NCBI GenBank assembly: GCA_016193285.1
Contig: JACPSL010000018.1
Coordinates: 91,535-155,534, forward strand
Source of the DNA: Candidatus Melainabacteria bacterium
Lineage (GTDB): Bacteria; Cyanobacteriota; Vampirovibrionia; 2-02-FULL-35-15
Length of the DNA: 64,000 nt
Reading direction: 5' to 3'
This document shows, piece after piece, positions 5,389 through 62,013 of this stretch. Under the pieces are notes generated by a model. It had not been told where the DNA came from. It worked only from the letters and a program-made list of their open reading frames with translations, and searched no databases. Each line of letters begins with the position of its first letter. Position 1 is the stretch's first letter. A program made the position numbers and the translations under genes.

Positions 5389-8300
5389 ATGAAAAAATTA
5401 ATTTGTTTAATCTTCGTATTGTCTATTAATCTTCCAACCCTTGCAGCACTAGGCATTAACTATGGAAATCTTTTTACTATTCCTCTTTTAGAAAATCATA
5501 AAGATAAAAGTACTATACTTCTTGCTCAGTCACAAACAAGTTTTTCAGGATCTACTAGTGGTAACAATGAAACACCATTTTCTGACACAGTTAAGATGTA
5601 CCTGTCCTCTACCCCTTCAAACTTACTTGGAGCTTATGAACATTACAAACCTCAATCAGCTCATCTAAACTTAACTGGTACATCTCAAACTACTCCAGCA
5701 TTTACTATTACAGCAAATGCTACTTTTACAAATCAAGCTTGGTCAATCACTGATGTTCAATTAAGTGGCACAGTTCCTACCAGCTATACTGTTCCTGAAC
5801 TTATAATCGATGATATTGTTGCTCAAATTGGAGGTCCTCAGTGTACTGGAACTAAATTTATTGCTGTAAAAACAATGGGTGGTCAAGATTATCTCATTAC
5901 TTGGATGATTGACGGCACCTCAACCAATGAAACTCGTCCTGTTTTACTTCCTAGACTTCAATTAACTCCATGGATAGGTGATAAGAGAGGCTGGCTTATT
6001 AAAATAAGAAACACAAACCCAGAAGGCGGGTTTGATCCTTATGCAGTTCCTTATGGACAAGACAATGTAAACCTAAAAAATTTAATCGATCCAATCATAA
6101 ATGTAATAAACAGATTGTCTAATAATCAAGTCAGGATGTTTTATGAAATAAAAGAAGCTTATTATAATGGACCTACAAATATAAGTTGCCAACTAAATCA
6201 AAACCCAATTATAAGTAATGTTCTTACTAATCTAGGAATCAATGAAACAAACTGGCGAAGCAGCTTTGACTTTTCAGTATACACAATGTACAAAATATTG
6301 CTTGATGCCTTCAAGCAGTATGAGAATTGTTATATACCACAAGGTACTGCCGCTTTTTGTGCTGCTGGTGCATGGTATCCAGATATTATTACTTCCTCTT
6401 TCAACGAAAGAACTTTTCAACATGAATTTGGACACACTATAAAATTTCCTCATCCATATTTAAATATCAATTGTGAAGGTGGCAATCCTCAAAACGTAAT
6501 AGCAAACCAGGTATTTGACAGCTGCAATGATTCACCAAGAAGCCCAACTTCAAATATGGGCCCAAACAATGGATTTTGGTGGAGTCCTATGGAAAGAGCT
6601 ATTCTTGGCTGGTTAAAAGGAGCTCAAGTAAAATCAATATCAAAGACTGGAATATATGACTTATACAGTGATAACGACGATCTTACTTCTGATCCTAGTA
6701 AACCTCTTATCCTTCAAGTACCAGTTAAAGTTAATAACATAACTGATTTTATTTATTTAACGCTACCAAATATAAGTGATGTAACTTACTGTTATAGTAG
6801 GACTGGTGAAACAGAGTTCATAGATCATTACAGTATGGGAGTTGAACTTAGTGCAGCGCACAATTTAAATCTTGATTTTACTGCATCAAGATTTGGTAGA
6901 AGTCTTTATTCAGTTGGATTAAAAGTATATAGTTACAACAATCAACCGTACAATGATGGTGACTGGCAAGCAGAAAGAAATGCTACATTCAAAAATACTA
7001 TACAACCTGATCAAGAAGTTCATCTAAATTGGCAAGGTACAGATGTCGTAATAAGAAATTTAGAACGCAGCGGTAATCATGCAAGAATTAGTATTCAATA
7101 CAACGAAGACATAACTTTATCTTCCTCATCAAGCTCATCAAGTAGTTCAAGTTCATCTTCATCATCAAGTTCGTCAAGTTCCTCTTCTAGTTCATCTTCT
7201 TCTAGCTCAGGTGGTTCATCATCATCATCATCTTCTTCTTCTAGTTCATCTTCCTCAAGTTCATCTTCTTCTAGCTCAGGTGGTTCATCATCATCTTCTT
7301 CTTCTAGTTCATCTTCCTCAAGTTCATCTTCTTCTAGCTCATCAAGTAGTTCAAGTTCATCTTCATCATCAAGTAGTAGTTCTTCCTCAGGTGGTTCATC
7401 ATCATCTTCTTCTAGTAGTTCATCATCTTCTTCTTCAAGTAGCTCTTCAGGTGGAGTAGATGGTAGCTCATCATCAAGTAGTAGTTCTTCTTCAGGTGGT
7501 TTCTCTACTTCAACAACCTCAAGTACTTCTACAGGTGGTACTTCTACCTCAACAACTTCAAGCACTACTTCATCTACAACCTCAAGTACTACAACTGGTG
7601 GTGCTCCAAGTTTAGGTGGTGGTGGTCTGTTTTTACCTTTAGAACCTCCTCCACAAACACCAGTACCTATTACATCTCCAACACCAAGTCCACAAGTACC
7701 TGAAGAGCCAATAACATCTCCTCCTCCAATTGCTACGGATCAAGGAAATGAAACAAAAAGTAATGAGAAGGAAATTGAACTTATTTTATCCTCTCAATTA
7801 CCTAATACTGCTTGGCAATCGCTTACACCAGATGAGTTGTCTAGTAATGTTAGTCTTGCATATAGTGATTCAAGCCTAACATTTGAAATTAAGCTTGCAA
7901 ACGATATTTCTAGTTCAGATATAGTTGCTCTTGATCTGGTAGATAGTAAGGGTACTGAATTTAAAAATATTCCGTTTACATTAACTTCAACTTCAAAAAA
8001 TTTAAATAATTTTATTTTAAGTTTTCAAATGCCTAGTAATATTGCTAAGGGCAAAATGACATTTAAACTAACATCAAATAAGGATACTACCTTTATTGGA
8101 TCAGTTAGAATTGTTAATTCTTTAAACATTGTAGCCATTACTTCTGGAAAAGAAAAAATCATTTCAAAACCAGTTATTAATAAGATTCAAGTAAAAAAGA
8201 AAAATAACAATGTTATCTTAGGTTTATTAGGCAATGGCTTTATAGATAAAAAACCACTTTTTACTAAAGATGGTAAGAAAACAGTCTTAAGAAGTAATAA

Positions 8301-8502
8301 AGGTAGTGAAAACACTATAGTTACAGTATTCCCAAGCAATCTAAATATAAACCAAAAGATAACTTCTATTTCAAAAAATGGCAGGAGCCTTACGATAAAG
8401 TTAGTTTTAAATAAAGAAGATCTTAAAGAACAAGTTCAAGGTATTGTTACTGTTGCTACCCCAAGAGGAATTACATCCAAGCAATTTGTAATCGATAAAT
8501 AA
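5389..8502 (+). CDS. Large secreted, probably cell-surface, protein. It has an N-terminal metzincin-like zinc-protease region (HEFGHTIKFPH), a poly-Ser/Gly/Thr stalk, a Pro-rich linker and a C-terminal beta-rich domain.
   Basis: Signal peptide. The HExxHxxxxxH spacing matches metzincins with Gly replaced by Lys. Roughly 150 residues are almost pure Ser. PLEPPPQTPVPITSPTPSPQVPEEP linker. Confidence 0.6.
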   Translation: MKKLICLIFVLSINLPTLAALGINYGNLFTIPLLENHKDKSTILLAQSQTSFSGSTSGNNETPFSDTVKMYLSSTPSNLLGAYEHYKPQSAHLNLTGTSQTTPAFTITANATFTNQAWSITDVQLSGTVPTSYTVPELIIDDIVAQIGGPQCTGTKFIAVKTMGGQDYLITWMIDGTSTNETRPVLLPRLQLTPWIGDKRGWLIKIRNTNPEGGFDPYAVPYGQDNVNLKNLIDPIINVINRLSNNQVRMFYEIKEAYYNGPTNISCQLNQNPIISNVLTNLGINETNWRSSFDFSVYTMYKILLDAFKQYENCYIPQGTAAFCAAGAWYPDIITSSFNERTFQHEFGHTIKFPHPYLNINCEGGNPQNVIANQVFDSCNDSPRSPTSNMGPNNGFWWSPMERAILGWLKGAQVKSISKTGIYDLYSDNDDLTSDPSKPLILQVPVKVNNITDFIYLTLPNISDVTYCYSRTGETEFIDHYSMGVELSAAHNLNLDFTASRFGRSLYSVGLKVYSYNNQPYNDGDWQAERNATFKNTIQPDQEVHLNWQGTDVVIRNLERSGNHARISIQYNEDITLSSSSSSSSSSSSSSSSSSSSSSSSSSSSSSGGSSSSSSSSSSSSSSSSSSSSSGGSSSSSSSSSSSSSSSSSSSSSSSSSSSSSSSSSSSGGSSSSSSSSSSSSSSSSSSGGVDGSSSSSSSSSSGGFSTSTTSSTSTGGTSTSTTSSTTSSTTSSTTTGGAPSLGGGGLFLPLEPPPQTPVPITSPTPSPQVPEEPITSPPPIATDQGNETKSNEKEIELILSSQLPNTAWQSLTPDELSSNVSLAYSDSSLTFEIKLANDISSSDIVALDLVDSKGTEFKNIPFTLTSTSKNLNNFILSFQMPSNIAKGKMTFKLTSNKDTTFIGSVRIVNSLNIVAITSGKEKIISKPVINKIQVKKKNNNVILGLLGNGFIDKKPLFTKDGKKTVLRSNKGSENTIVTVFPSNLNINQKITSISKNGRSLTIKLVLNKEDLKEQVQGIVTVATPRGITSKQFVIDK
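7120..7560. repeat. Highly repetitive poly-Ser-coding tract (TCA/TCT/AGT/AGC microsatellite-like) within the 1037-aa protein.
   Basis: Direct reading. The antisense ORFs 7095..7565 and 7211..7459 are artefacts of this low-complexity tract. Confidence 0.85.
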
Positions 8503-9768: not shown

Positions 9769-10476
9769 ATGAAAAGTACAAACTCTAGAAAGAATTTTCT
9801 TTATGCTATTTTATTTTTAGTTGCTATATTCTTTAATAGTCTTCCTCTTTATGCACAAACACTACAAGTACAAGCTTCCTTATATAACAGGCTTGGAGGA
9901 GTATTTGTGATTAGCGCTGTTGTAGATGATTTTACTGAAAGGTTAGTTTCTGATCCTATTATTACTGCAAATCCAAACATTGTAGCTGCAATCTCTGAAA
10001 TTAATAAGCCAGGACTAAAGTTCCTTATAACTGAGTTCCTTTGTGATAGAAGTGGTGGACCACAAAAATATACAGGGAAAAATATGAAAGAAGCTCACCA
10101 AAATTTAAAAATTACAGAAATTGAGTGGGGTACATCAGTAAAAATATTACTTGATGCTCTTGCAAAACAAAATGTCCCAGAAAAAGAAAAAAATGAACTA
10201 GTTGCACTTATATCAAGCATAAAGGGAGATATTGTTTCAGCTGAAATAAAAGTTCCTACACCACAAGTTCCTCCATTACAAGTCCCTGCTCCACTAGGAC
10301 AAGCTCCTTTTCCACAAGTTGCTCCTCTCCCACAAGCTGCTCCTGAAGTGCAAGTTGTGCCACCTCCTTTACAAGCTCCACAACCTGTAATCCCACCAGT
10401 ACAAGCTGCACCTGTAATAGAAGCAGTACCTCCTGATATCGAAAATATACTTCCTGATCTAGCACCACCTGAGTAG
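9769..10476 (+). CDS. Group-1 truncated hemoglobin (2/2 Hb) with an N-terminal signal peptide and a C-terminal Pro/Gln/Val-rich repeat tail.
   Basis: LYNRLGG...FTERLVSDP...FLITEFLCDRSGGPQKYTGKNMKEAHQNLKITEIEW matches trHbN conserved blocks. The signal-peptide-like N-terminus ends LYA-QT. The tail is about 70 residues of PxQ/VPP repeats. Confidence 0.6.
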   Translation: MKSTNSRKNFLYAILFLVAIFFNSLPLYAQTLQVQASLYNRLGGVFVISAVVDDFTERLVSDPIITANPNIVAAISEINKPGLKFLITEFLCDRSGGPQKYTGKNMKEAHQNLKITEIEWGTSVKILLDALAKQNVPEKEKNELVALISSIKGDIVSAEIKVPTPQVPPLQVPAPLGQAPFPQVAPLPQAAPEVQVVPPPLQAPQPVIPPVQAAPVIEAVPPDIENILPDLAPPE

Positions 10477-10659: not shown

Positions 10660-11889
10660 GTGGTATACTGCAAAGTAGCCATGATAGAAAGAGAGCTATA
10701 TAGTTTAATAGAAAAAGATAGCAATCTAAGACAAATGTCTTTTGTTGCAGGGCCAAGACAAATAGGGAAAACAACTCTTGCTAAAGAATTATTGCATAAG
10801 CATAATTGCTCAGAGTTTTATTTTAATTGGGATTTAGCTTCTACAAGATCAAATTATAGAGAAAATTCAAATTTTTATTCTAACAACATAGGGAACAGGA
10901 AGAAGGTCTGGATTTGTTTTGATGAAATCCACAAACTAAGAAAATGGAAAAATATATTAAAAGAGCATTTTGACAAAAATGAAGGCAGAATGAAAACAAT
11001 AATTACTGGAAGTGCAAGGTTAGATCTGTTTAGAAAATCTGGAGATAGTCTTGCAGGAAGATATTTTTTATATCATTTGTTACCTTTAACGCTAAGTGAA
11101 ATTTCAGCAAGGGGAAAAAATGTTGAAGAGAAGCTAGCATCAGCAATAGACTTTATTGAATTAAGAATAAGTAGGAAAGTTAAATCTAAAAACTCAATTG
11201 ATCAGCTACTAAGATTCAGTGGTTTTCCAGAGCCCTTTAAAATAGCTTCTGAAGATTTCCATACAAAGTGGAAAAAGTCTTATGTTGACAGGCTAATCTA
11301 TGAAGATTTGAGAGAGATATCACAGATTCAAGACCTGGAAAAAACTGCACTATTAATTGATTTACTGCCAGAAAGAATAGGAGCACTTTTATCAATTAAT
11401 TCACTAAGTGAAGATTTAGAAGTAAATTTCAGAACAGCTAAAAATTATCTTAAAGCATTAGAATTAACTTACATATTGTTTTTTATTAAACCCTATACAA
11501 AAAATATTTCAAGATCGGTAAGAAAAGAACAAAAAGTCTATTTCTATGACTGGACAAGAATTAACAATGAATCAAATAGATTTGAAAATTATGTTGCATG
11601 TGAACTTTTTATACTAGTTTCCTTCTGGAATGATTCTGGATATGGATATTATGACTTGAATTTTATTAGAACAAAAGATGGAAAAGAAACAGACTTTCTA
11701 ATTATAAAAGATAAGAAACCCTGGTTACTTATAGAGGTAAAGCTTGCGTCAAAGGAAATAAAGTCGCATCATATTACACAAGCAAAATACTTAGGTAATA
11801 TTCCGGTTATTCAGATAGTTTATGAAGGAAGTGTAATAAAAAGATTAGATAAGAATTTGTTTATAATTTCTGCTGAAAAGTTTTTTTAA
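10660..11889 (+). CDS. AAA-family ATPase with a DUF4143-type C-terminus.
   Basis: Walker A GPRQIGKTT, Walker B-like WICFDEIH, and the architecture typical of the ATPase-DUF4143 family. The true start may be the ATG at 10681. Confidence 0.55.
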   Translation: MVYCKVAMIERELYSLIEKDSNLRQMSFVAGPRQIGKTTLAKELLHKHNCSEFYFNWDLASTRSNYRENSNFYSNNIGNRKKVWICFDEIHKLRKWKNILKEHFDKNEGRMKTIITGSARLDLFRKSGDSLAGRYFLYHLLPLTLSEISARGKNVEEKLASAIDFIELRISRKVKSKNSIDQLLRFSGFPEPFKIASEDFHTKWKKSYVDRLIYEDLREISQIQDLEKTALLIDLLPERIGALLSINSLSEDLEVNFRTAKNYLKALELTYILFFIKPYTKNISRSVRKEQKVYFYDWTRINNESNRFENYVACELFILVSFWNDSGYGYYDLNFIRTKDGKETDFLIIKDKKPWLLIEVKLASKEIKSHHITQAKYLGNIPVIQIVYEGSVIKRLDKNLFIISAEKFF

Positions 11890-33947: not shown

Positions 33948-34139
33948 GTTTTTATTTCTAGAGTAATAGTATAAAGAGCCCTAACTTTTAAATATTAGTA
34001 ACTTCGTACCGATAACAAACTCGGGAGAGAAATAATTACGAGAAAGACTTGGACTTAAGTCTAAAACAGATTGTTTTTCTTATGGCTGGGAAAAATTTTC
34101 TTTTGTAATTTTAAATCTGCTTCCAGAAAGGAGCAAACT

Positions 34140-34742
34140 ATGTTTAAAGAAATCATGAGACTATTAGCAGTAATAGCTATTCTCTGTTCTGCAAACATTG
34201 TTTGTGTAGATAGTGCATTTGCAGCAGGTACTGTACCATTATCAATTACTGTTAATGGTTCACTTGTAATCTCAGATGCTGATAATGACACTATGGCAGG
34301 AAAAGATCCTACAAAGAATGTTAGTTTAACAATTACACCTGATCTTGGCCACACTTTACAAAGTGGTAGTGCTAATTTTAGGCTAAGAACTAACCGTTCA
34401 ACGTGGAGGTTAACTGCTCAGCGTACAGCAACAAATGCTGGTGGTACTGCAATTGCAGATAGTGATGTCAAGGTTGACATTAGTAAATCTGCAGGTTCAA
34501 CAGCAAGTGCTGCCGCAGGTTCTTTAGTTGCTCCGTTTACTGCACAAACTGACCTGACTTCTATTACTACAGCTAGTCCAGTTGATGTTATTAGTGGAAC
34601 AGCTAAAACATCTACAGCGCTAGATGCAAGTAATACAAACAACTGGTTTCAAGTTAATACTACGTATAGCTTGCAACCAGACTTTTTCTACGCACCAGGT
34701 ACGTTTAGTACAACCATAACGTACAATTTTGTGTCACCGTAG
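34140..34742 (+). CDS. Fimbrial subunit-like protein, family member 2.
   Basis: RBS AGGAG then ATG at 34140. TVPLSITVNGSLVISDA...NFRLRTNRSTWRLTAQRTATN...DFFYAPGTFSTTITYNFVSP. About 60% identical to member 1. Confidence 0.55.
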   Translation: MFKEIMRLLAVIAILCSANIVCVDSAFAAGTVPLSITVNGSLVISDADNDTMAGKDPTKNVSLTITPDLGHTLQSGSANFRLRTNRSTWRLTAQRTATNAGGTAIADSDVKVDISKSAGSTASAAAGSLVAPFTAQTDLTSITTASPVDVISGTAKTSTALDASNTNNWFQVNTTYSLQPDFFYAPGTFSTTITYNFVSP

Positions 34743-34749
34743 GAGAAAT

Positions 34750-34821
34750 AGCAATCAGCAGTCAGCAGTCAGCAATCAGCAAAATAAAAGAGCTGATAGC
34801 TGAATGCTGATAGCTGATAGC
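34750..34821. repeat. Long imperfect hairpin built from heptamer repeats, (AGCARTC)n facing (GCTGAWW)n. STRR-like; probably a terminator.
   Basis: agcaatcagcagtcagcagtcagcaatcagc aaaataaaagag gctgatagctgaatgctgatagctgatagct. Confidence 0.6.
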
Positions 34822-34936
34822 TTGTTAATCCTAGACTTATCAAATGATTTTTATTTTTTCAGTACTAAATTACTAAGACTTTTTAATTTGATAAAAATAA
34901 TTTTGGGCATGTTATTCTTGCAACAAAAAAACACAT

Positions 34937-39659: not shown

Positions 39660-40154
39660 GTGTTGAACGTATTTGCAAAAACAATTGATGGTCTCTACAA
39701 CATACTAAAAGGTATGTTTACTGTAATTAAGCATACTGGTAGAAATCCGATTACATCTAGTTATCCTGATGTAATACCTGAGCTTTATCCAACAAGCCGT
39801 CATAGACTTGCATTAACAGTAAATCCTGATACTGGTGAACATCTTTGTATTGCATGTAAACAATGTGAAAGAATTTGCCCTGATACATGTATAACTGTAA
39901 TCCCGGATCCCGAGAAGAAAGGTGTGATAAAAGAATTTTATTTAGATCATGGACTTTGTATGTTTTGCGGGCTTTGTACTGAGGTTTGTCCTACTAACTG
40001 TATTATAAATACTGTTGATTTTGAAATGAGTGAGTATAAAAGAGAAGATTTAATTTATGATATAAAAAGACTTACTCTTACTCAGGAACAATCAAGATTT
40101 TATTTTGATTTTAAAGAAATGCCGAAACCAAAACCAAAGCCAGTAAAGGCTTGA
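39660..40154 (+). CDS. ndhI: NADH-quinone oxidoreductase subunit I (NdhI/NuoI), 2x[4Fe-4S].
   Basis: CIACKQCERICP and CMFCGLCTEVCP ferredoxin motifs. Confidence 0.8.
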   Translation: MLNVFAKTIDGLYNILKGMFTVIKHTGRNPITSSYPDVIPELYPTSRHRLALTVNPDTGEHLCIACKQCERICPDTCITVIPDPEKKGVIKEFYLDHGLCMFCGLCTEVCPTNCIINTVDFEMSEYKREDLIYDIKRLTLTQEQSRFYFDFKEMPKPKPKPVKA

Positions 40155-40666
40155 AAGGAAACATCATAATGGACCTAGCTTATTTTGCTTTCAGTGTTTT
40201 AGCTGTAGCTGGTGCAATAGGTGTCGTATTAGAAAAAAACATTATTAGAGCAGGCTTTGCACTTGTAGTTTGTTTTGGAGCAGTTGCAGGGACTTATTTT
40301 ACTCTTTCTGCTCCATTTGTAGGTGCTTCGCAAATTTTAATTTATGCTGTTGGAATTACATTAGTAGTTGTTTTTGCACTTATGTTAACAAGTTCAAAAT
40401 CAAATCTAGAGTCAATAAAAGGTGAGACAGGAAAAAATTTCTTAAGTGCAATAATAGCTCTTGGAATATTTTTTACATTTGCTTTTGCTTTAGTAAGTAA
40501 TAAATGGCCAAGTAACTTACATGCTATTTGTCCTAGAAATACAGAGGTTATTGGTTTAAAACTTTTAAGTTTATATGTTCTTCCATTTGAATTAATTTCT
40601 GTACTTTTATTAGTAGCATTAATAGGAGCAGTCTTAATTGCTAAGAAGGATAAAAAACAGGAGTAA
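40151..40666 (+). CDS. ndhG: NADH-quinone oxidoreductase subunit J (NdhG/NuoJ).
   Basis: 171-aa multi-TM protein positioned between nuoI and nuoK. Its start overlaps the nuoI stop. Confidence 0.7.
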   Translation: MKGNIIMDLAYFAFSVLAVAGAIGVVLEKNIIRAGFALVVCFGAVAGTYFTLSAPFVGASQILIYAVGITLVVVFALMLTSSKSNLESIKGETGKNFLSAIIALGIFFTFAFALVSNKWPSNLHAICPRNTEVIGLKLLSLYVLPFELISVLLLVALIGAVLIAKKDKKQE

Positions 40667-40688
40667 ACAGGAGTAAACAGAAGTAAAG
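40657..40688 (+). repeat. Tandem 10-bp repeat CAGGAGTAAA x2 plus CAGAAGTAAA. It spans the ndhG stop and the ndhE ribosome-binding site.
   Basis: Direct reading: caggagtaaacaggagtaaacagaagtaaag ATG. Confidence 0.8.
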
Positions 40689-41069
40689 ATGTCTAATTTT
40701 TTAAAACTTTTTATTAGTGCTCTTTTATTAGCATGTTTTTTATTTATGGCTATTAGATTAGACTCTTCACTTGAAAGGTATATCTTGCTTTCAACAGCAA
40801 TATTTAGTTTAGGAATATATGGTTTAACAGCATCAAGAAACGCAATTAGGGTACTAATGTCTATTGAACTTTTACTTAATGCAGTTAACATTAATCTTGT
40901 AGCATTTTCAAGTTTTATGGATCCACTTGAAATCAAAGGACAAATCTTTGCAATTTTTGTTATGGCAGTTGCAGCAGCAGAAGCAGCAATTGCACTTTCT
41001 ATAATTCTAGCTATCTATCGCAACATGTCATCTGTAGACATGGAGGACTTTGTAAATTTAAAGTGGTAG
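40689..41069 (+). CDS. ndhE: NADH-quinone oxidoreductase subunit K (NdhE/NuoK).
   Basis: Three TM helices and a conserved E in the second helix. 126 aa. Confidence 0.75.
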
Positions 41070-41449: not shown

Positions 41450-41527
41450 GTGTCCTAGAAATTAGAAAATCAGAAATCAGAGGATCAGAATGAGAAAAAC
41501 AAATTTAATTATAGCCTACCCTATGTA

Positions 41528-43225
41528 TTAGCTGACCAAAGTTGCTTCGAGTAATTTGTGATTAGTAATAGCCCCGTCCCTTGCACTGCCCACTAGCTTC
41601 GCATACTTAGCTAAAGCTCCAGAAGTATAATTTGGTTTTGGTGGTTGCCATTTATTTTTTCTTTGCTTTAATTCTTGTTCACTTAACTCGACATTGATCA
41701 TTCCTTTTCCAGCATCAATTTCAATCATGTCTCCATCTTGAATAAGTGCAATTGGTCCGCCAATAAATGCTTCAGGTGCTACGTGTCCTATCATGAGTCC
41801 TCTTGTACCACCACTAAATCTCCCGTCTGTAATTAATGCACATTCAGTTCCTAAACCTTGACCATAAAGTGCTGCAGTAACTGAAAGCATTTCTCTCATG
41901 CCAGGCCCTCCTTTTGGACCTTCATAACGAATTACAACAACATCACCAGCTTTAATTTTTTTGTTTGTAATTGCTTCAAAACATTTTTGCTCACTGTTAA
42001 AAACTCTAGCTGGACCATGATGAAATAATTTTTTTGTACCTGCTACTTTTACAACTGCTCCATCTGGTGCAAGATTCCCTTTTAAAATTTTTAAACCACC
42101 AGTTGAGCTTAGTGGTTTGTCAATTGGATAAATTACATCTTGATCTTTTGGGAATCTTATATTCTTTAAATTTTCAGCTTGTGTTTTACCTGTAACAGTT
42201 AAGCAGTCTCCATTTAACAAACTTGCATCCAACAGATTTTTTAAAACAACTGAGACACCACCTACTTTATGTAAATCATAAGCTACATACTTACCACCTG
42301 GTTTTAAATCTACAAAATATGGTGTTTCATGAAATATTTTTTCAATTTCTTCAATTGAAAATTTAATTCCAGCTTCATGTGCCATTGCTGGGAGATGTAA
42401 GACTGCATTTGTTGAACCACCTGTAGCAGCTACAACTCTACTAGCATTTTCAAATGCTTTCTTAGTCATAATGTCCAGAGGTTTAATGTCTTCTTTTAAA
42501 AGATTAATTACTGCTTCACCACAAGCTTTATGGATTTTCTTTCTTTCAGGATCAATTGCTGGATATGAACTGCTCCCTGGAAGTGCAATTCCAATTGCTT
42601 CAGAAACACATGCCATTGTATTTGCTGTAAATTGACCACCACAAGAACCTGCTCCAGGACAAGCATTGCATTCTATTTCATATAATTCTTTATTAGAAAT
42701 TTTTCCTACATTATAAGCACCAACTGCTTCATATACATCTACAATAGTCAAATCTTTTCCTTTATAATTACCGGGCATTATTGTTCCACCATAAAGAAAA
42801 ACAGCAGGTAAATTCAAGCGGAGCATTGCCATCATTATTCCAGGTAATCCTTTGTCACAACCAGCTATTCCAATCCATCCGTCATAGCAATGAGCATGCA
42901 TCATTAGTTCAATTGAGTCTGCAATTATTTCACGACTAACAAGTGAAGCTTTCATCCCTTCATGTCCCATTGCAATTGCATCACTAACTGAAATAGTTAT
43001 AAATTCACGTGGTGTTCCACCATTTGCAACAATTGATTTTTTAATTGCTTCTGCTTGATCATGAAGAGTTAAATTACAAGGAGTTACTTCATTCCATGTA
43101 CTAGCAACTCCAATAAAAGGCTGGTTTAATTCTTTATCAGTTAGACCCATTGCACGGTACATTGATCGATGAGGTGCTCTTTCAGGTCCGATTGTTACTG
43201 TTTTGCTTTGTTGTTTTAAATCCAT
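41528..43225 (-). CDS. ilvD: Dihydroxy-acid dehydratase.
   Basis: 565 aa. CDKGLPG and SGGTRG signature regions. Confidence 0.9.
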
Positions 43226-43231
43226 GAATTT

Positions 43232-43296
43232 AGACCATAGACCATAGACTAGAGACTATAGACCTTTTTGTGGTCTACGGTCTATGGTCTATAGTC
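43232..43296. repeat. Hairpin composed of heptamer repeats (AGACCAT/AGACTAG/AGACTAT units and their complements). It starts 7 bp upstream of the ilvD start codon.
   Basis: agaccatagaccatagactagagactatagacc tttttgt ggtctacggtctatggtctatagtct. Confidence 0.7.
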
Positions 43297-43402
43297 TTTT
43301 GTCCCAACGTGGTTTTTGATTTCATCTAAGCTATAATCTAACATATAAATTTGAAGAATAACAGTATAAGCATATTTATTTAAATAAAGAAAAAAATATA
43401 AG

Positions 43403-45062: not shown

Positions 45063-46148
45063 TTATTTTTCTTTCAATGGTACTCTTAGAATTTCTTCAT
45101 TATCAAGTGGATCAACTAATGCTAATGAATAATTTCCAACTTTATCCATAATTAAAAATGCAAGAGAAATAGTTGCCTCGTTAAATGGTTTTATTGTTTT
45201 AAGTGCTTCTTGTCCTGATAGAAATAAATCTGGATGCAATGGCTCAACTTCAGAATTGTTTACTAAAACAATGTCAGATAAACTAATTGGGTTTTGTGAA
45301 TTATTTTTTAGTTCAAAATTTAAAATAATGTAATCTCCATATTTTTTACTGTGCATCTTATTTATATTTTTTATTGTTATATTAATTTCATCTTTATTTG
45401 TTTTTGGAAAAAATCTAAATCCTTTGTAGCTCTCTGCTTCTCTGTTTCTTTGTTTCTCTGCTTCTTGTACCGGAAGCTCTCCTAAAATATATAAATTACT
45501 TTTTAAGACAACTTTTGTATTAATTCCAGTCAAGAGTGTTGGGATTTTACCTTTCCTTCGCATTGAGCCTACAATTCCTGCACTTGCTCCGATTCCACCA
45601 CCAGCAAGGACACTAATTCCATGCGTAGCAAATGCAAGCGGTAAACCACCATATTGAAGTCCTGCAATTAAACCATGGAAAGTTCCATAGGTAGTTAATG
45701 CAGCATCATAAGTTAAAGTATCTGCAAGTTTTTTTGTAATGGGTAAAGTGTTTGTACTTACAGAAGCAAAAATTGGAATTCTTATATTACCTGGAGTAAT
45801 AATTTCATTAAATTCAATTTCAAATGCGCCGTCTTGTCCAAAGTATCTTGGACTTTTTATTTCAGTTATAATTCCATCAAGTCTGCTTCCTTTTGGTATG
45901 TAAAAATCTTTCCCAATTAAAATATCATCCTTTAAAATCGCACTTATTTTATCTCCTTGTTGACTAAAGTAAAAATTTATTGGTGTGTTTAAACTAATAT
46001 CAATGATTTGTCCTTTGTCAATGACTGTTGAAATCCCACCCTTTAGTAAGGTCTTGGAGGTTGCTTCAAGTCCACAGTAACTACTTACAAGAAGAAAAGA
46101 AAGAACTAGTAGAAAATTTACAAACCTAAGTAATATCATATGCATCAA
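45063..46148 (-). CDS. Secreted glycine-zipper protein, paralog of 21893..22960.
   Basis: Same three-part architecture and the shared ATHG-S-AGGGIG motif. Confidence 0.45.
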   Translation of the reverse strand: MMHMILLRFVNFLLVLSFLLVSSYCGLEATSKTLLKGGISTVIDKGQIIDISLNTPINFYFSQQGDKISAILKDDILIGKDFYIPKGSRLDGIITEIKSPRYFGQDGAFEIEFNEIITPGNIRIPIFASVSTNTLPITKKLADTLTYDAALTTYGTFHGLIAGLQYGGLPLAFATHGISVLAGGGIGASAGIVGSMRRKGKIPTLLTGINTKVVLKSNLYILGELPVQEAEKQRNREAESYKGFRFFPKTNKDEINITIKNINKMHSKKYGDYIILNFELKNNSQNPISLSDIVLVNNSEVEPLHPDLFLSGQEALKTIKPFNEATISLAFLIMDKVGNYSLALVDPLDNEEILRVPLKEK

Positions 46149-61050: not shown

Positions 61051-62013
61051 GTGACTGTAAAATCAAAATTAATAATTGGTACCCGCTCTAGCAAGCTTGC
61101 TTGTTGGCAAGCAAATTATGTAAAAGACAAGCTATTAAGATTTTATCCAGAGCTTGAAATTAATTTAAAAGAAATAAAAACAAAAGGTGATCATATTACT
61201 GATGTTGCTCTTTCAAAAGTTGGTGGGAAAGGATTTTTTACAAAAGAAATTGAAGATGCACTTCTTAAAAAAGAAATTGATTTAGCAGTGCATAGCTTAA
61301 AAGATCTGCCAACAAAATTACCAAGCGGACTAAAAATAGGAGCCGTATTAAAAAGAGAGAGTCCACATGATGTATTGATTACAAGGGGTCTGACCCCATT
61401 AAGGGGTCTGCCCCCTTGGGCAAAAATAGGTACTTCAAGCCTTCGTAGAATTGCTCAACTAAAGGCGTTGCGACCTGATTTGGAGTACATTGACCTTCGT
61501 GGAAATCTCGATACAAGGATTAGAAAGCTTGAAGAAGGAAAACATGATGGAATAGTCCTAGCTTACAGCGGGGTAAAACGATTAGGTTTTGAAAACAAGA
61601 TTACTGAACATTTTAACCCAAAAGAAATTTTGCCTGCTATTGGACAAGGAGCACTAGCAATTGAAATCAGAGAAGAAAGAGTAGTAGAAGAACTAATTTC
61701 TAAACTCAATGATCAAGAAACATATTTAAGTTCAATTGTAGAGCGAGCATTTTTAGAAACCTTGCAAGGTGGTTGTCAAGTACCGATTGGCGCTTATTCA
61801 GAAATTGCAAATAATAAAATTACTTTATATGGAATGATTGCAAGTCTGGATGGAAAAAAAATAGTCAAAGACCATAGACTAGAGACCATAGACTATAGAC
61901 TAGAACTAAGAGAACAAAATATAGAGGGTTGTTATAGACTTGGGAAAGAATTAGCAGAAAGGTTACTGCAATTAGGTGGAAAAGAAATTCTTCAAGAGAT
62001 TGTAAGGGTGTGA
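61051..62013 (+). CDS. hemC: Porphobilinogen deaminase (hydroxymethylbilane synthase).
   Basis: IGTRSSKLACWQA, GGKGFFTKEIE, and the cofactor-binding Cys region GGCQVPIG. Confidence 0.85.
   Translation: MTVKSKLIIGTRSSKLACWQANYVKDKLLRFYPELEINLKEIKTKGDHITDVALSKVGGKGFFTKEIEDALLKKEIDLAVHSLKDLPTKLPSGLKIGAVLKRESPHDVLITRGLTPLRGLPPWAKIGTSSLRRIAQLKALRPDLEYIDLRGNLDTRIRKLEEGKHDGIVLAYSGVKRLGFENKITEHFNPKEILPAIGQGALAIEIREERVVEELISKLNDQETYLSSIVERAFLETLQGGCQVPIGAYSEIANNKITLYGMIASLDGKKIVKDHRLETIDYRLELREQNIEGCYRLGKELAERLLQLGGKEILQEIVRV
61869..61910. repeat. Six tandem heptamers (AGACCAT AGACTAG AGACCAT AGACTAT AGACTAG AACTAAG) inserted in frame in hemC (encodes approximately [14 protein letters not shown]).
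   Basis: Direct reading. The units are the same as in the hairpin at 43232-43296. 42 bp equals 14 codons. Confidence 0.85.

Follow-up and report, generated by a model that had tools for sequence, protein, structure and literature searches.

The gene hemC encodes hydroxymethylbilane synthase (porphobilinogen deaminase), a housekeeping tetrapyrrole enzyme. In the stretch of DNA analysed here (64,000 nucleotides of contig JACPSL010000018.1, assembly GCA_016193285.1; hereafter the window), which comes from a metagenome-assembled genome (MAG) of Candidatus Melainabacteria, hemC contains within its coding sequence a tandem array of heptanucleotide units of the form AGACYAK. The array is translated in frame and adds a short peptide to a loop of the third domain of the enzyme, and the same units are found 18 kb away as a hairpin directly upstream of ilvD. 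The features on which this account turns are the following.

61051-62013, plus strand: hemC, an intact open reading frame (ORF) of 320 aa with a GTG start
61869-61903, plus strand: array of five clean heptamers, AGACCAT, AGACTAG, AGACCAT, AGACTAT and AGACTAG, found by direct reading and with Tandem Repeats Finder (TRF)
61870-61911, plus strand: 14-aa peptide encoded by the array (HemC residues 274-287), a two-fold repeat of 7 aa, found by codon reading and in alignments

The heptanucleotide array in hemC

The array consists of head-to-tail 7-nt units and is longer than expected by chance, as in the definition of a heptanucleotide long simple sequence repeat (LSSR). TRF reported it both with a period of 14 (2.3 copies, 94% matches, 61869-61900) and with a period of 7 (5.4 copies with indels, 61876-61913), and a degenerate continuation extends to about 61910-61917. 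A preliminary description of the locus had counted six tandem units, or 42 bp; five of these are clean, but the sixth (AACTAAG, 61904-61910) is degenerate and forms part of a decayed tail. The array is read by hemC in its sole open sense frame, the other two of the three frames containing TAG stops, and the gain or loss of one or two units would therefore place immediate TAG stops within it. Folding of the array as RNA yielded no hairpin (z -0.61 against shuffles) and no inverted arm is present; given this z score, and the array being a direct one, the idea that the hemC copy forms a hairpin was rejected.

Assembly contigs in Logan from the runs SRR12113425 (12.2 kb, a contig seen in three samples) and SRR12113428 (1.39 kb) both match the window with 100% identity, the array included. 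Since these are independent assemblies from other runs, the array is not an artefact of assembly, and it is a real and reproducible feature of this genome. At the consensus level, that is in assemblies and not in reads, no length polymorphism in repeat number was observed.

The gene that houses the array has the hallmarks of an intact hemC. The ORF matches the Pfam families PF01379 (E 2.4e-81, 272.7 bits against a cut-off of 22.1) and PF03900 (E 1.3e-19, 70.8 bits against a cut-off of 26), and its product matches the structures of Escherichia coli HemC with an E value of 1.2e-75. All of the invariant HemC residues are kept in the orthologue alignment, including C242, the cysteine of the GGCQVP motif. 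With the orthologue alignment as input, AlphaFold gave a model with a mean predicted local distance difference test (pLDDT) score of 91; one low-confidence stretch, at residues 47-60, is the known mobile active-site loop. The protein is 100% identical to NCBI entry MBI2995927.1, from a Candidatus Melainabacteria MAG, and among the 5.8 billion protein clusters searched the next-best match has approximately 75% amino acid identity. The loci nearest to the window belong to Melainabacteria RIFCSP genomes; the Melainabacteria are non-photosynthetic and form the sister group of the Cyanobacteriota (NCBI taxonomy). Its neighbours on the two sides are hemA and a cobA/hemD fusion gene, and the order hemA-hemC-cobA/hemD is maintained in relatives.

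The encoded peptide lengthens a loop of domain 3

The 80 best HemC cluster representatives from Melainabacteria, the query among them, were aligned, and the peptide was found to lie in the domain-3 loop that connects the last β-strand to the last helix (termed loop B here), bounded by the SLDG motif on one side and by the LG of that helix on the other. This loop is 20 aa long in 55 of the 80 representatives and 18 aa long in 19, and falls between 18 and 20 aa in 74; in the query it measures 29 aa, and in E. coli it is 11 aa shorter than in the query. The 14-aa segment is absent both from E. coli and from all 79 of the other representatives, an ortholog check that had been called for when the array was first described. 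With the intact 320-aa ORF and the absence of these residues from orthologues, the idea of an in-frame insertion in the C-terminal domain of HemC stands, but a gain of 14 codons does not, as the net difference from the clade orthologues is 9 codons (27 nt). The conserved Lys-Asp codons, AAA GAC, already contain the AGAC with which the array starts, and its tail (CTA GAA CTA AGA GAA CAA AAT) may belong to the native loop and merely resemble decayed units. That the peptide repeats every 7 aa is expected from the 3 x 7 nt periodicity of the DNA.

In the AlphaFold model, residues 271-279 form a lengthened β-strand, residues 280-283 a turn and residues 284-319 a lengthened terminal helix, with a single dip in confidence around the insert (pLDDT 79 at residues 281-290). 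The most likely effect of the encoded segment is thus no more than a longer strand-turn-helix hairpin in domain 3. HMMER alignments of the query to chains of the human enzyme (HMBS) end at query residue 280, which corresponds to human residue 299. Human HMBS carries a species-specific insert of 29 residues (residues 296-324), which sits where domains 1 and 3 meet and has no known function (PMC10448817). As the alignments end where this human insert begins, loop B is naturally permissive, which the lengthened HemC loops of other Melainabacteria (below) also support well.

The same heptamers form a hairpin upstream of ilvD

For a pattern of three units, AGACNANAGACNANAGAC, the window has 9 matches where 0.04 would be expected, and every match lies either in the hemC array or at 43232-43304, next to ilvD. 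These two loci have an exact 18-mer in common, AGACCATAGACTAGAGAC, and are built from the identical three unit variants in a different order, so that strong enrichment of the hemC units elsewhere is confirmed within the window. The ilvD locus and a second hairpin made of other heptamers comprise the following features.

43232-43297, minus strand: hairpin of AGACYAK heptamers, with arms at 43232-43264 and 43271-43297
41528-43225, minus strand: ilvD (dihydroxy-acid dehydratase), 565 aa, matching PF00920 (E 2e-129) and PF24877 (E 1.1e-79)
34750-34822, plus strand: second heptamer hairpin, an AGCAATC/AGCAGTC arm facing a GCTGATA arm

The hairpin in the ilvD leader, which had been proposed from inspection of the units, was borne out by RNA folding of the minus strand (-38 kcal/mol, z -5.5, a value equalled by 0 of 200 shuffles). 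From the 3' base of the stem to the AUG at 43225 the distance is 6-7 nt; the structure spans positions -7 to -72, and no Shine-Dalgarno (SD) sequence is present between the hairpin and this AUG. The ATG at 43225 is in keeping with the N-terminal Pfam domain of IlvD, which starts at residue 35. Judged by its position and by the missing SD sequence, the hairpin might affect the initiation of translation; transcription might also start inside it. A sigma-70-like match (TAGACC-18-TATAGT) does lie inside the hairpin, but such matches are not above shuffle expectation and it is thus no evidence for a promoter.

The hairpin at 34750 likewise agrees with the initial reading, having an RNA fold of -48.4 kcal/mol (z -6.9). 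It begins 8 nt past the stop codon of the ORF at 34071-34742, and neither a canonical terminator T-run nor a promoter was found for it. Indeed, scans for sigma-70 promoters and intrinsic terminators around both hairpins gave nothing above shuffle expectation, and an Rfam scan of the whole window returned three tRNAs only, with no family at any hairpin. A third hairpin, claimed at 41455-41495, was not recovered: this segment is a weak direct repeat (period 8/15, 75%) that does not fold (z +1.75), and it was rejected as a heptamer hairpin on this ground. The heptamer content of the 64 kb thus amounts to three loci, with five arrays and two unit families. An additional 10 kb of the same genome (contig L208, reached via a GH116 gene) contained no period-7 arrays.

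AGACYAK arrays and facing arrays in metagenomes

A scan of Joint Genome Institute (JGI) metagenomes for three AGACYAK units followed by AGAC recovered at least 120 contigs, and the 80 of these loci that were analysed range in GC content from 0.31 to 0.71. A unit family found in at least 120 contigs of such wide GC content is widespread, and is not diagnostic of the clade. Of 82 metagenome arrays, 15 have another period-7 array no more than 60 nt away, and roughly half of these pairs fold strongly, for instance in contigs L139 (-74.5 kcal/mol), L153 (-66.7 kcal/mol) and L131 (-64.4 kcal/mol). Hairpins of facing heptamer arrays were located at 3454-3555 in L139, 1700-1789 in L153, 937-1029 in L131, 1222-1310 in L149 and 3223-3301 in L089. 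Such hairpins occur in contigs of 31-69% GC, and their arms are sometimes made of different units and pair imperfectly. This suggests that inverted heptamer arrays are a general architecture, of which we found no description; a literature search on tandem repeats in Melainabacteria returned nothing relevant.

Repeats and palindromes in the HemC loops of other Melainabacteria

A second HemC loop was found to vary in the same way. This loop (termed loop A here) follows the HDVLI motif and links domain 1 to domain 2; its length is 15 aa in 41 of the 80 representatives, and it is lengthened, to as much as 57 aa, in 35. In the query it contains a further repeat-derived element.

61383-61417, plus strand: GC-rich palindrome AAGGGGTCTGACCCC-ATT-AAGGGGTCTGCCCCCTT in loop A, at hemC codons 111-123, encoding RGLTPLRGLPP

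This element comprises two copies of the palindrome GGGGTCTGMCCCC and takes the place of the usual SKNKIKFKDLP linker with no change in length. The surrounding 45-nt segment (approximately 61381-61425) has a GC content of 0.58, against 0.35 for hemC as a whole (the window has 32% GC), and folds with -26 kcal/mol. In the nearest orthologue, L083, a perfect palindrome (1614-1651, -32.2 kcal/mol) occupies the same site, and the loop-A element is therefore older than the split between the query and L083. Among 212 loci the GGGGTCTGMCCCC motif was found in these two hemC genes only, and it was found nowhere else in the window.

Longer palindromes, of approximately 100 nt (GTCATTGCGAGG...CCTCGCAATGAC and GTCATTCTGAGCGAAGCG...), are translated in frame in the hemC genes of other Melainabacteria. 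They lie in loop A of L206 (10334-10438) and L207 (4865-4945), where they fold with -56 and -46 kcal/mol, respectively, and in loop B of L084 (P0029; 871-982), where the loop reaches 52 aa against the usual 20; in L206 a further copy is intergenic, at about 5445. The peptides derived from these palindromes resemble VIARRLEESTKQS...IASSLSFLAMT and CHSERSEESQ...ANASQNDM. Heptamers are also found: loop A of L085 (P0052) contains five CAGAAGA units in frame (10325-10358) and loop B of the same gene CAGARRA units around a GC-rich mini-hairpin (10831-10854), whilst loop A of L209 (P0075) contains six GAGGACA units followed by four CAGCTCG units, again in frame (about 607-700). L085 and L209 are different lineages, and their heptamers are unrelated to AGACYAK. 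The longer loop B of P0054 was considered as a further heptamer insert and ruled out, as it is AT-rich, of low complexity and lacks any periodicity of 7. The HemC loops were seen to contain heptamers of no fewer than three unrelated families and palindromes of three or more, and on these alignments the two loops are recurrent hotspots for the insertion of repeats in this clade.

Other repeats in the window

Several repeats with other periods were observed in the window. At 1707-1732 (26 nt) there are about 3.2 copies of the octamer CGTATCGG; this GC-rich array lies between two GH116 domains of the minus-strand gene at 528-2828 and encodes TYRRIGVSA, and is another non-triplet coding repeat in an AT-rich genome. 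A repeat of octamer period, TCTCTGCT (4.4 copies, as read on the plus strand), lies at 45431-45465 within the minus-strand ORF 45063-46148, which has no Pfam match, and encodes QEAEKQRNREAES. The decamer AAACAGGAGT is repeated 3.3 times at 40655-40687, across the stop codon of the ORF at 40151-40666, and ends 1 nt before an ATG at 40689; it amounts to a tandem array of SD-like AGGAG motifs. Dense nested tandem repeats with periods of 15-63 nt are found at 7132-7572, within an ORF of 1037 aa (5389-8502). L208, an independent Logan contig, ends at about these repeats, which suggests that short-read assembly breaks there.

Origin of the hemC array

We consider it probable that the array is a passenger, that is an insertion of the genome's own AGACYAK heptanucleotide satellite in a permissive loop of HemC. 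Under this proposal the genome would harbour a small family of heptanucleotide satellites, the intergenic copies of which are inverted arrays that form long hairpins, and one direct AGACYAK array would have entered hemC, or expanded within it, at the codons for the surface loop of domain 3. It would have survived purifying selection and persisted as a neutral or nearly neutral passenger, being tolerated because the sense frame is free of stops, the net 27 nt are divisible by three and the loop is permissive. The array is likely to have originated through slipped-strand or template-switch DNA synthesis primed on native sequence that resembled a unit: the supposed native codons AAA GAC CTA GAA hold a unit-like 8-mer, AGACCTAG, and the replacement of these 8 nt by the 35 nt of five units would account for the +27 nt.

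Several points weigh against this proposal. The closest relative in the databases searched has approximately 75% amino acid identity; with no closer relative the empty site is not seen, and the boundaries and mechanism of the insertion are ones that we infer. The 27 nt gained do not correspond to whole heptamers, which calls for an extra assumption in the form of a unit-like native seed or a later indel. Slippage would predict variation in repeat number, and none was seen in the consensus assemblies. The HemC protein with its insert is presumed to be functional, and, as 74 kb of the genome were covered, the concept of a genome-wide family is drawn from three loci.

The array could instead be one arm of a mobile hairpin element, resembling a miniature inverted-repeat transposable element (MITE) or spreading by copy-and-paste, whose second arm has disappeared or was not copied at all. 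Such an element would explain the exact 18-nt identity and the same three unit variants at loci 18 kb apart, and it would be in keeping with the recurrence of inverted heptamer arrays in metagenome contigs that are unrelated (a second array close by in 15 of the 82, with strong hairpins in about half of these) and with the dispersed palindromes of approximately 100 nt that occur in the same HemC loops, and in one intergenic copy, in other Melainabacteria; in-frame insertion of palindromes is moreover established for the Rickettsia palindromic elements (RPEs) (PMC10969869). We nonetheless regard it as unlikely. The hemC array has neither an inverted arm nor a fold (z -0.61), neither locus shows terminal inverted repeats or a target-site duplication, the flanks differ and nothing but the heptamer units is common to the copies, the order of the units is unlike between the copies and no transposase-linked parent was seen, whilst tandem arrays with shuffled unit variants are the expected product of slippage or unequal exchange. 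A bolder version, in which the heptamer satellites and palindromes of Melainabacteria actively propagate and seed peptides in HemC loops, the domain-3 insert has been co-opted to modulate the enzyme and the ilvD hairpin is a new type of device for translational control, seems to us quite unlikely.

A functional role for the units has also been weighed, in which AGACYAK would be the site of a regulator, or part of a structured RNA, that controls the translation of ilvD together with hemC, and the insertion in hemC would be kept for its function as nucleic acid. In the SD-less ilvD the hairpin covers positions -7 to -72, exactly the region to which the 30S subunit has to bind. For the Beggiatoaceae, heptamers placed immediately upstream of start codons have been suggested to serve as sites for post-transcriptional regulators (PMC4679880), and deletion of an array adjoining recO in Nostoc PCC 7120 changed the response of a reporter (bioRxiv 10.1101/2022.06.06.494920). 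However, no known RNA family was matched, the hemC copy is single-armed and unstructured, and other lineages have different heptamers or palindromes at the same loops, which speaks for tolerance of the loop and not for a conserved site; because no close relative exists, there is also no evidence of conservation. Shared control by AGACYAK is thus distinctly improbable.

Changes of one or two units would lead to immediate TAG stops in the array, and coding simple sequence repeats (SSRs) with non-triplet units are a classic device of phase variation (PMC4692102; PMC4679880), which raises the notion of a contingency locus that switches hemC off reversibly. This is very improbable, as the array is located at codons 273-285 of 320 and not at the 5' end, hemC is a housekeeping gene in a conserved operon and not a surface or virulence gene, at least two runs gave assemblies with no difference between them, and five imperfect units are a poor substrate for slippage. 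An assembly chimera as the source of the array, or decay of hemC to a pseudogene, is hardly credible: the source is a MAG and short repeats can be mis-assembled, but the two-run Logan assemblies (12.2 kb and 1.39 kb) are identical, and the full-length ORF, the invariant residues and the confident model (mean pLDDT 91) led to its rejection.

The passenger insertion does not overturn current understanding and is a fairly ordinary case of a repeat within a gene: heptanucleotide satellites, their adjacency to start codons and the in-frame insertion of repeats are all known already. What is new is the Melainabacteria host, the site within a conserved enzyme domain and the recurrence of insertions at two HemC loops across the clade. 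Heptanucleotide satellites, long linked to the Nostocales, are thus present in a non-photosynthetic sister lineage, and are translated there within a conserved enzyme. The 80 HemC variants make up a natural experiment in how selfish or slippage-derived DNA becomes protein and in which positions of HMBS tolerate insertion, the loop with the unexplained human-specific insert among them. Translated repeats of this kind also inflate the apparent diversity of proteins in metagenomic catalogues.

Comparison with known systems

The heptanucleotide repeats of heterocystous cyanobacteria, the short tandemly repeated repetitive (STRR) sequences, were reportedly described by Mazel et al. in 1990. The canonical units are CCCCAGT (STRR1), TTGGTCA (STRR2) and CAACAGT (STRR3). 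At the best rotations, the units of the window agree with STRR2 at 5 of 7 positions and with STRR3 at 6 of 7 (AGTCAGC against AGTCAAC), and are thus similar but not identical. The preliminary description had taken heptanucleotide tandem repeats as a hallmark of cyanobacterial genomes; the tandem heptamers are confirmed, but they are not specifically cyanobacterial (at least 120 contigs, 31-71% GC) and the units are not those of STRR1-3. Common to both are tandem 7-nt units, several families per genome and a mostly intergenic location near the ends or starts of genes; in contrast to the STRRs, the host of the window is a Melainabacteria MAG and not a heterocystous (Nostocales) cyanobacterium, the intergenic copies are inverted pairs that form hairpins and one copy is translated within a conserved enzyme. 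In Nostoc PCC 7120, an array of eight GAC(C/T)AAT units adjoins the start of recO, and its deletion altered the responses of a reporter (bioRxiv 10.1101/2022.06.06.494920). The GACCATA rotation of the window resembles this unit.

Heptamers are reported to be the commonest class of long SSRs in many bacteria (Mrazek 2007, as summarized in PMC4679880), and polymerase slippage has been proposed as their origin, with occasional copies inside genes (PMC4679880; PMC4692102). The TAACTGA arrays of the Beggiatoaceae lie a few nucleotides upstream of SD-less start codons, and a minority are found in ORFs, mostly at the ends of proteins (PMC4679880). The arrays of the window are like these heptamer LSSRs in being short (two to six or more units) and often close to SD-less starts. 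Their intergenic copies form hairpins, in contrast to the TAACTGA repeats, and whereas the intragenic copies of Beggiatoa are mostly confined to protein termini or hypothetical ORFs, the hemC array lies inside a well-conserved enzyme domain.

The insert of human HMBS is comparable in that it, too, extends this domain-3 loop of the enzyme by additional residues whose function is unknown; it differs in being longer, in its unrelated sequence and origin and in not being derived from a repeat, as far as is known. A further parallel is provided by the RPEs, palindromic repeats that are inserted in frame in the housekeeping genes of Rickettsia (PMC10969869). Like the RPEs and intragenic MITEs, the elements described here are repeats of the genome that stand in frame in a housekeeping gene and add a peptide compatible with the fold, and the same HemC loops have been hit repeatedly across the clade. 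The hemC array itself behaves as an RPE-like insertion in being in frame, in a conserved gene, at a tolerant site and absent from orthologues. However, RPEs are palindromes of approximately 150 bp with a conserved peptide, whereas the hemC array is a direct satellite of 35-42 bp with no palindrome. The loop-A element of the query, unlike the heptamer array, does have the palindromic structure of RPE-like elements and MITEs, and the palindromes of approximately 100 nt in the hemC genes of L206, L207 and L084 are closer analogues of the RPEs than is the array.

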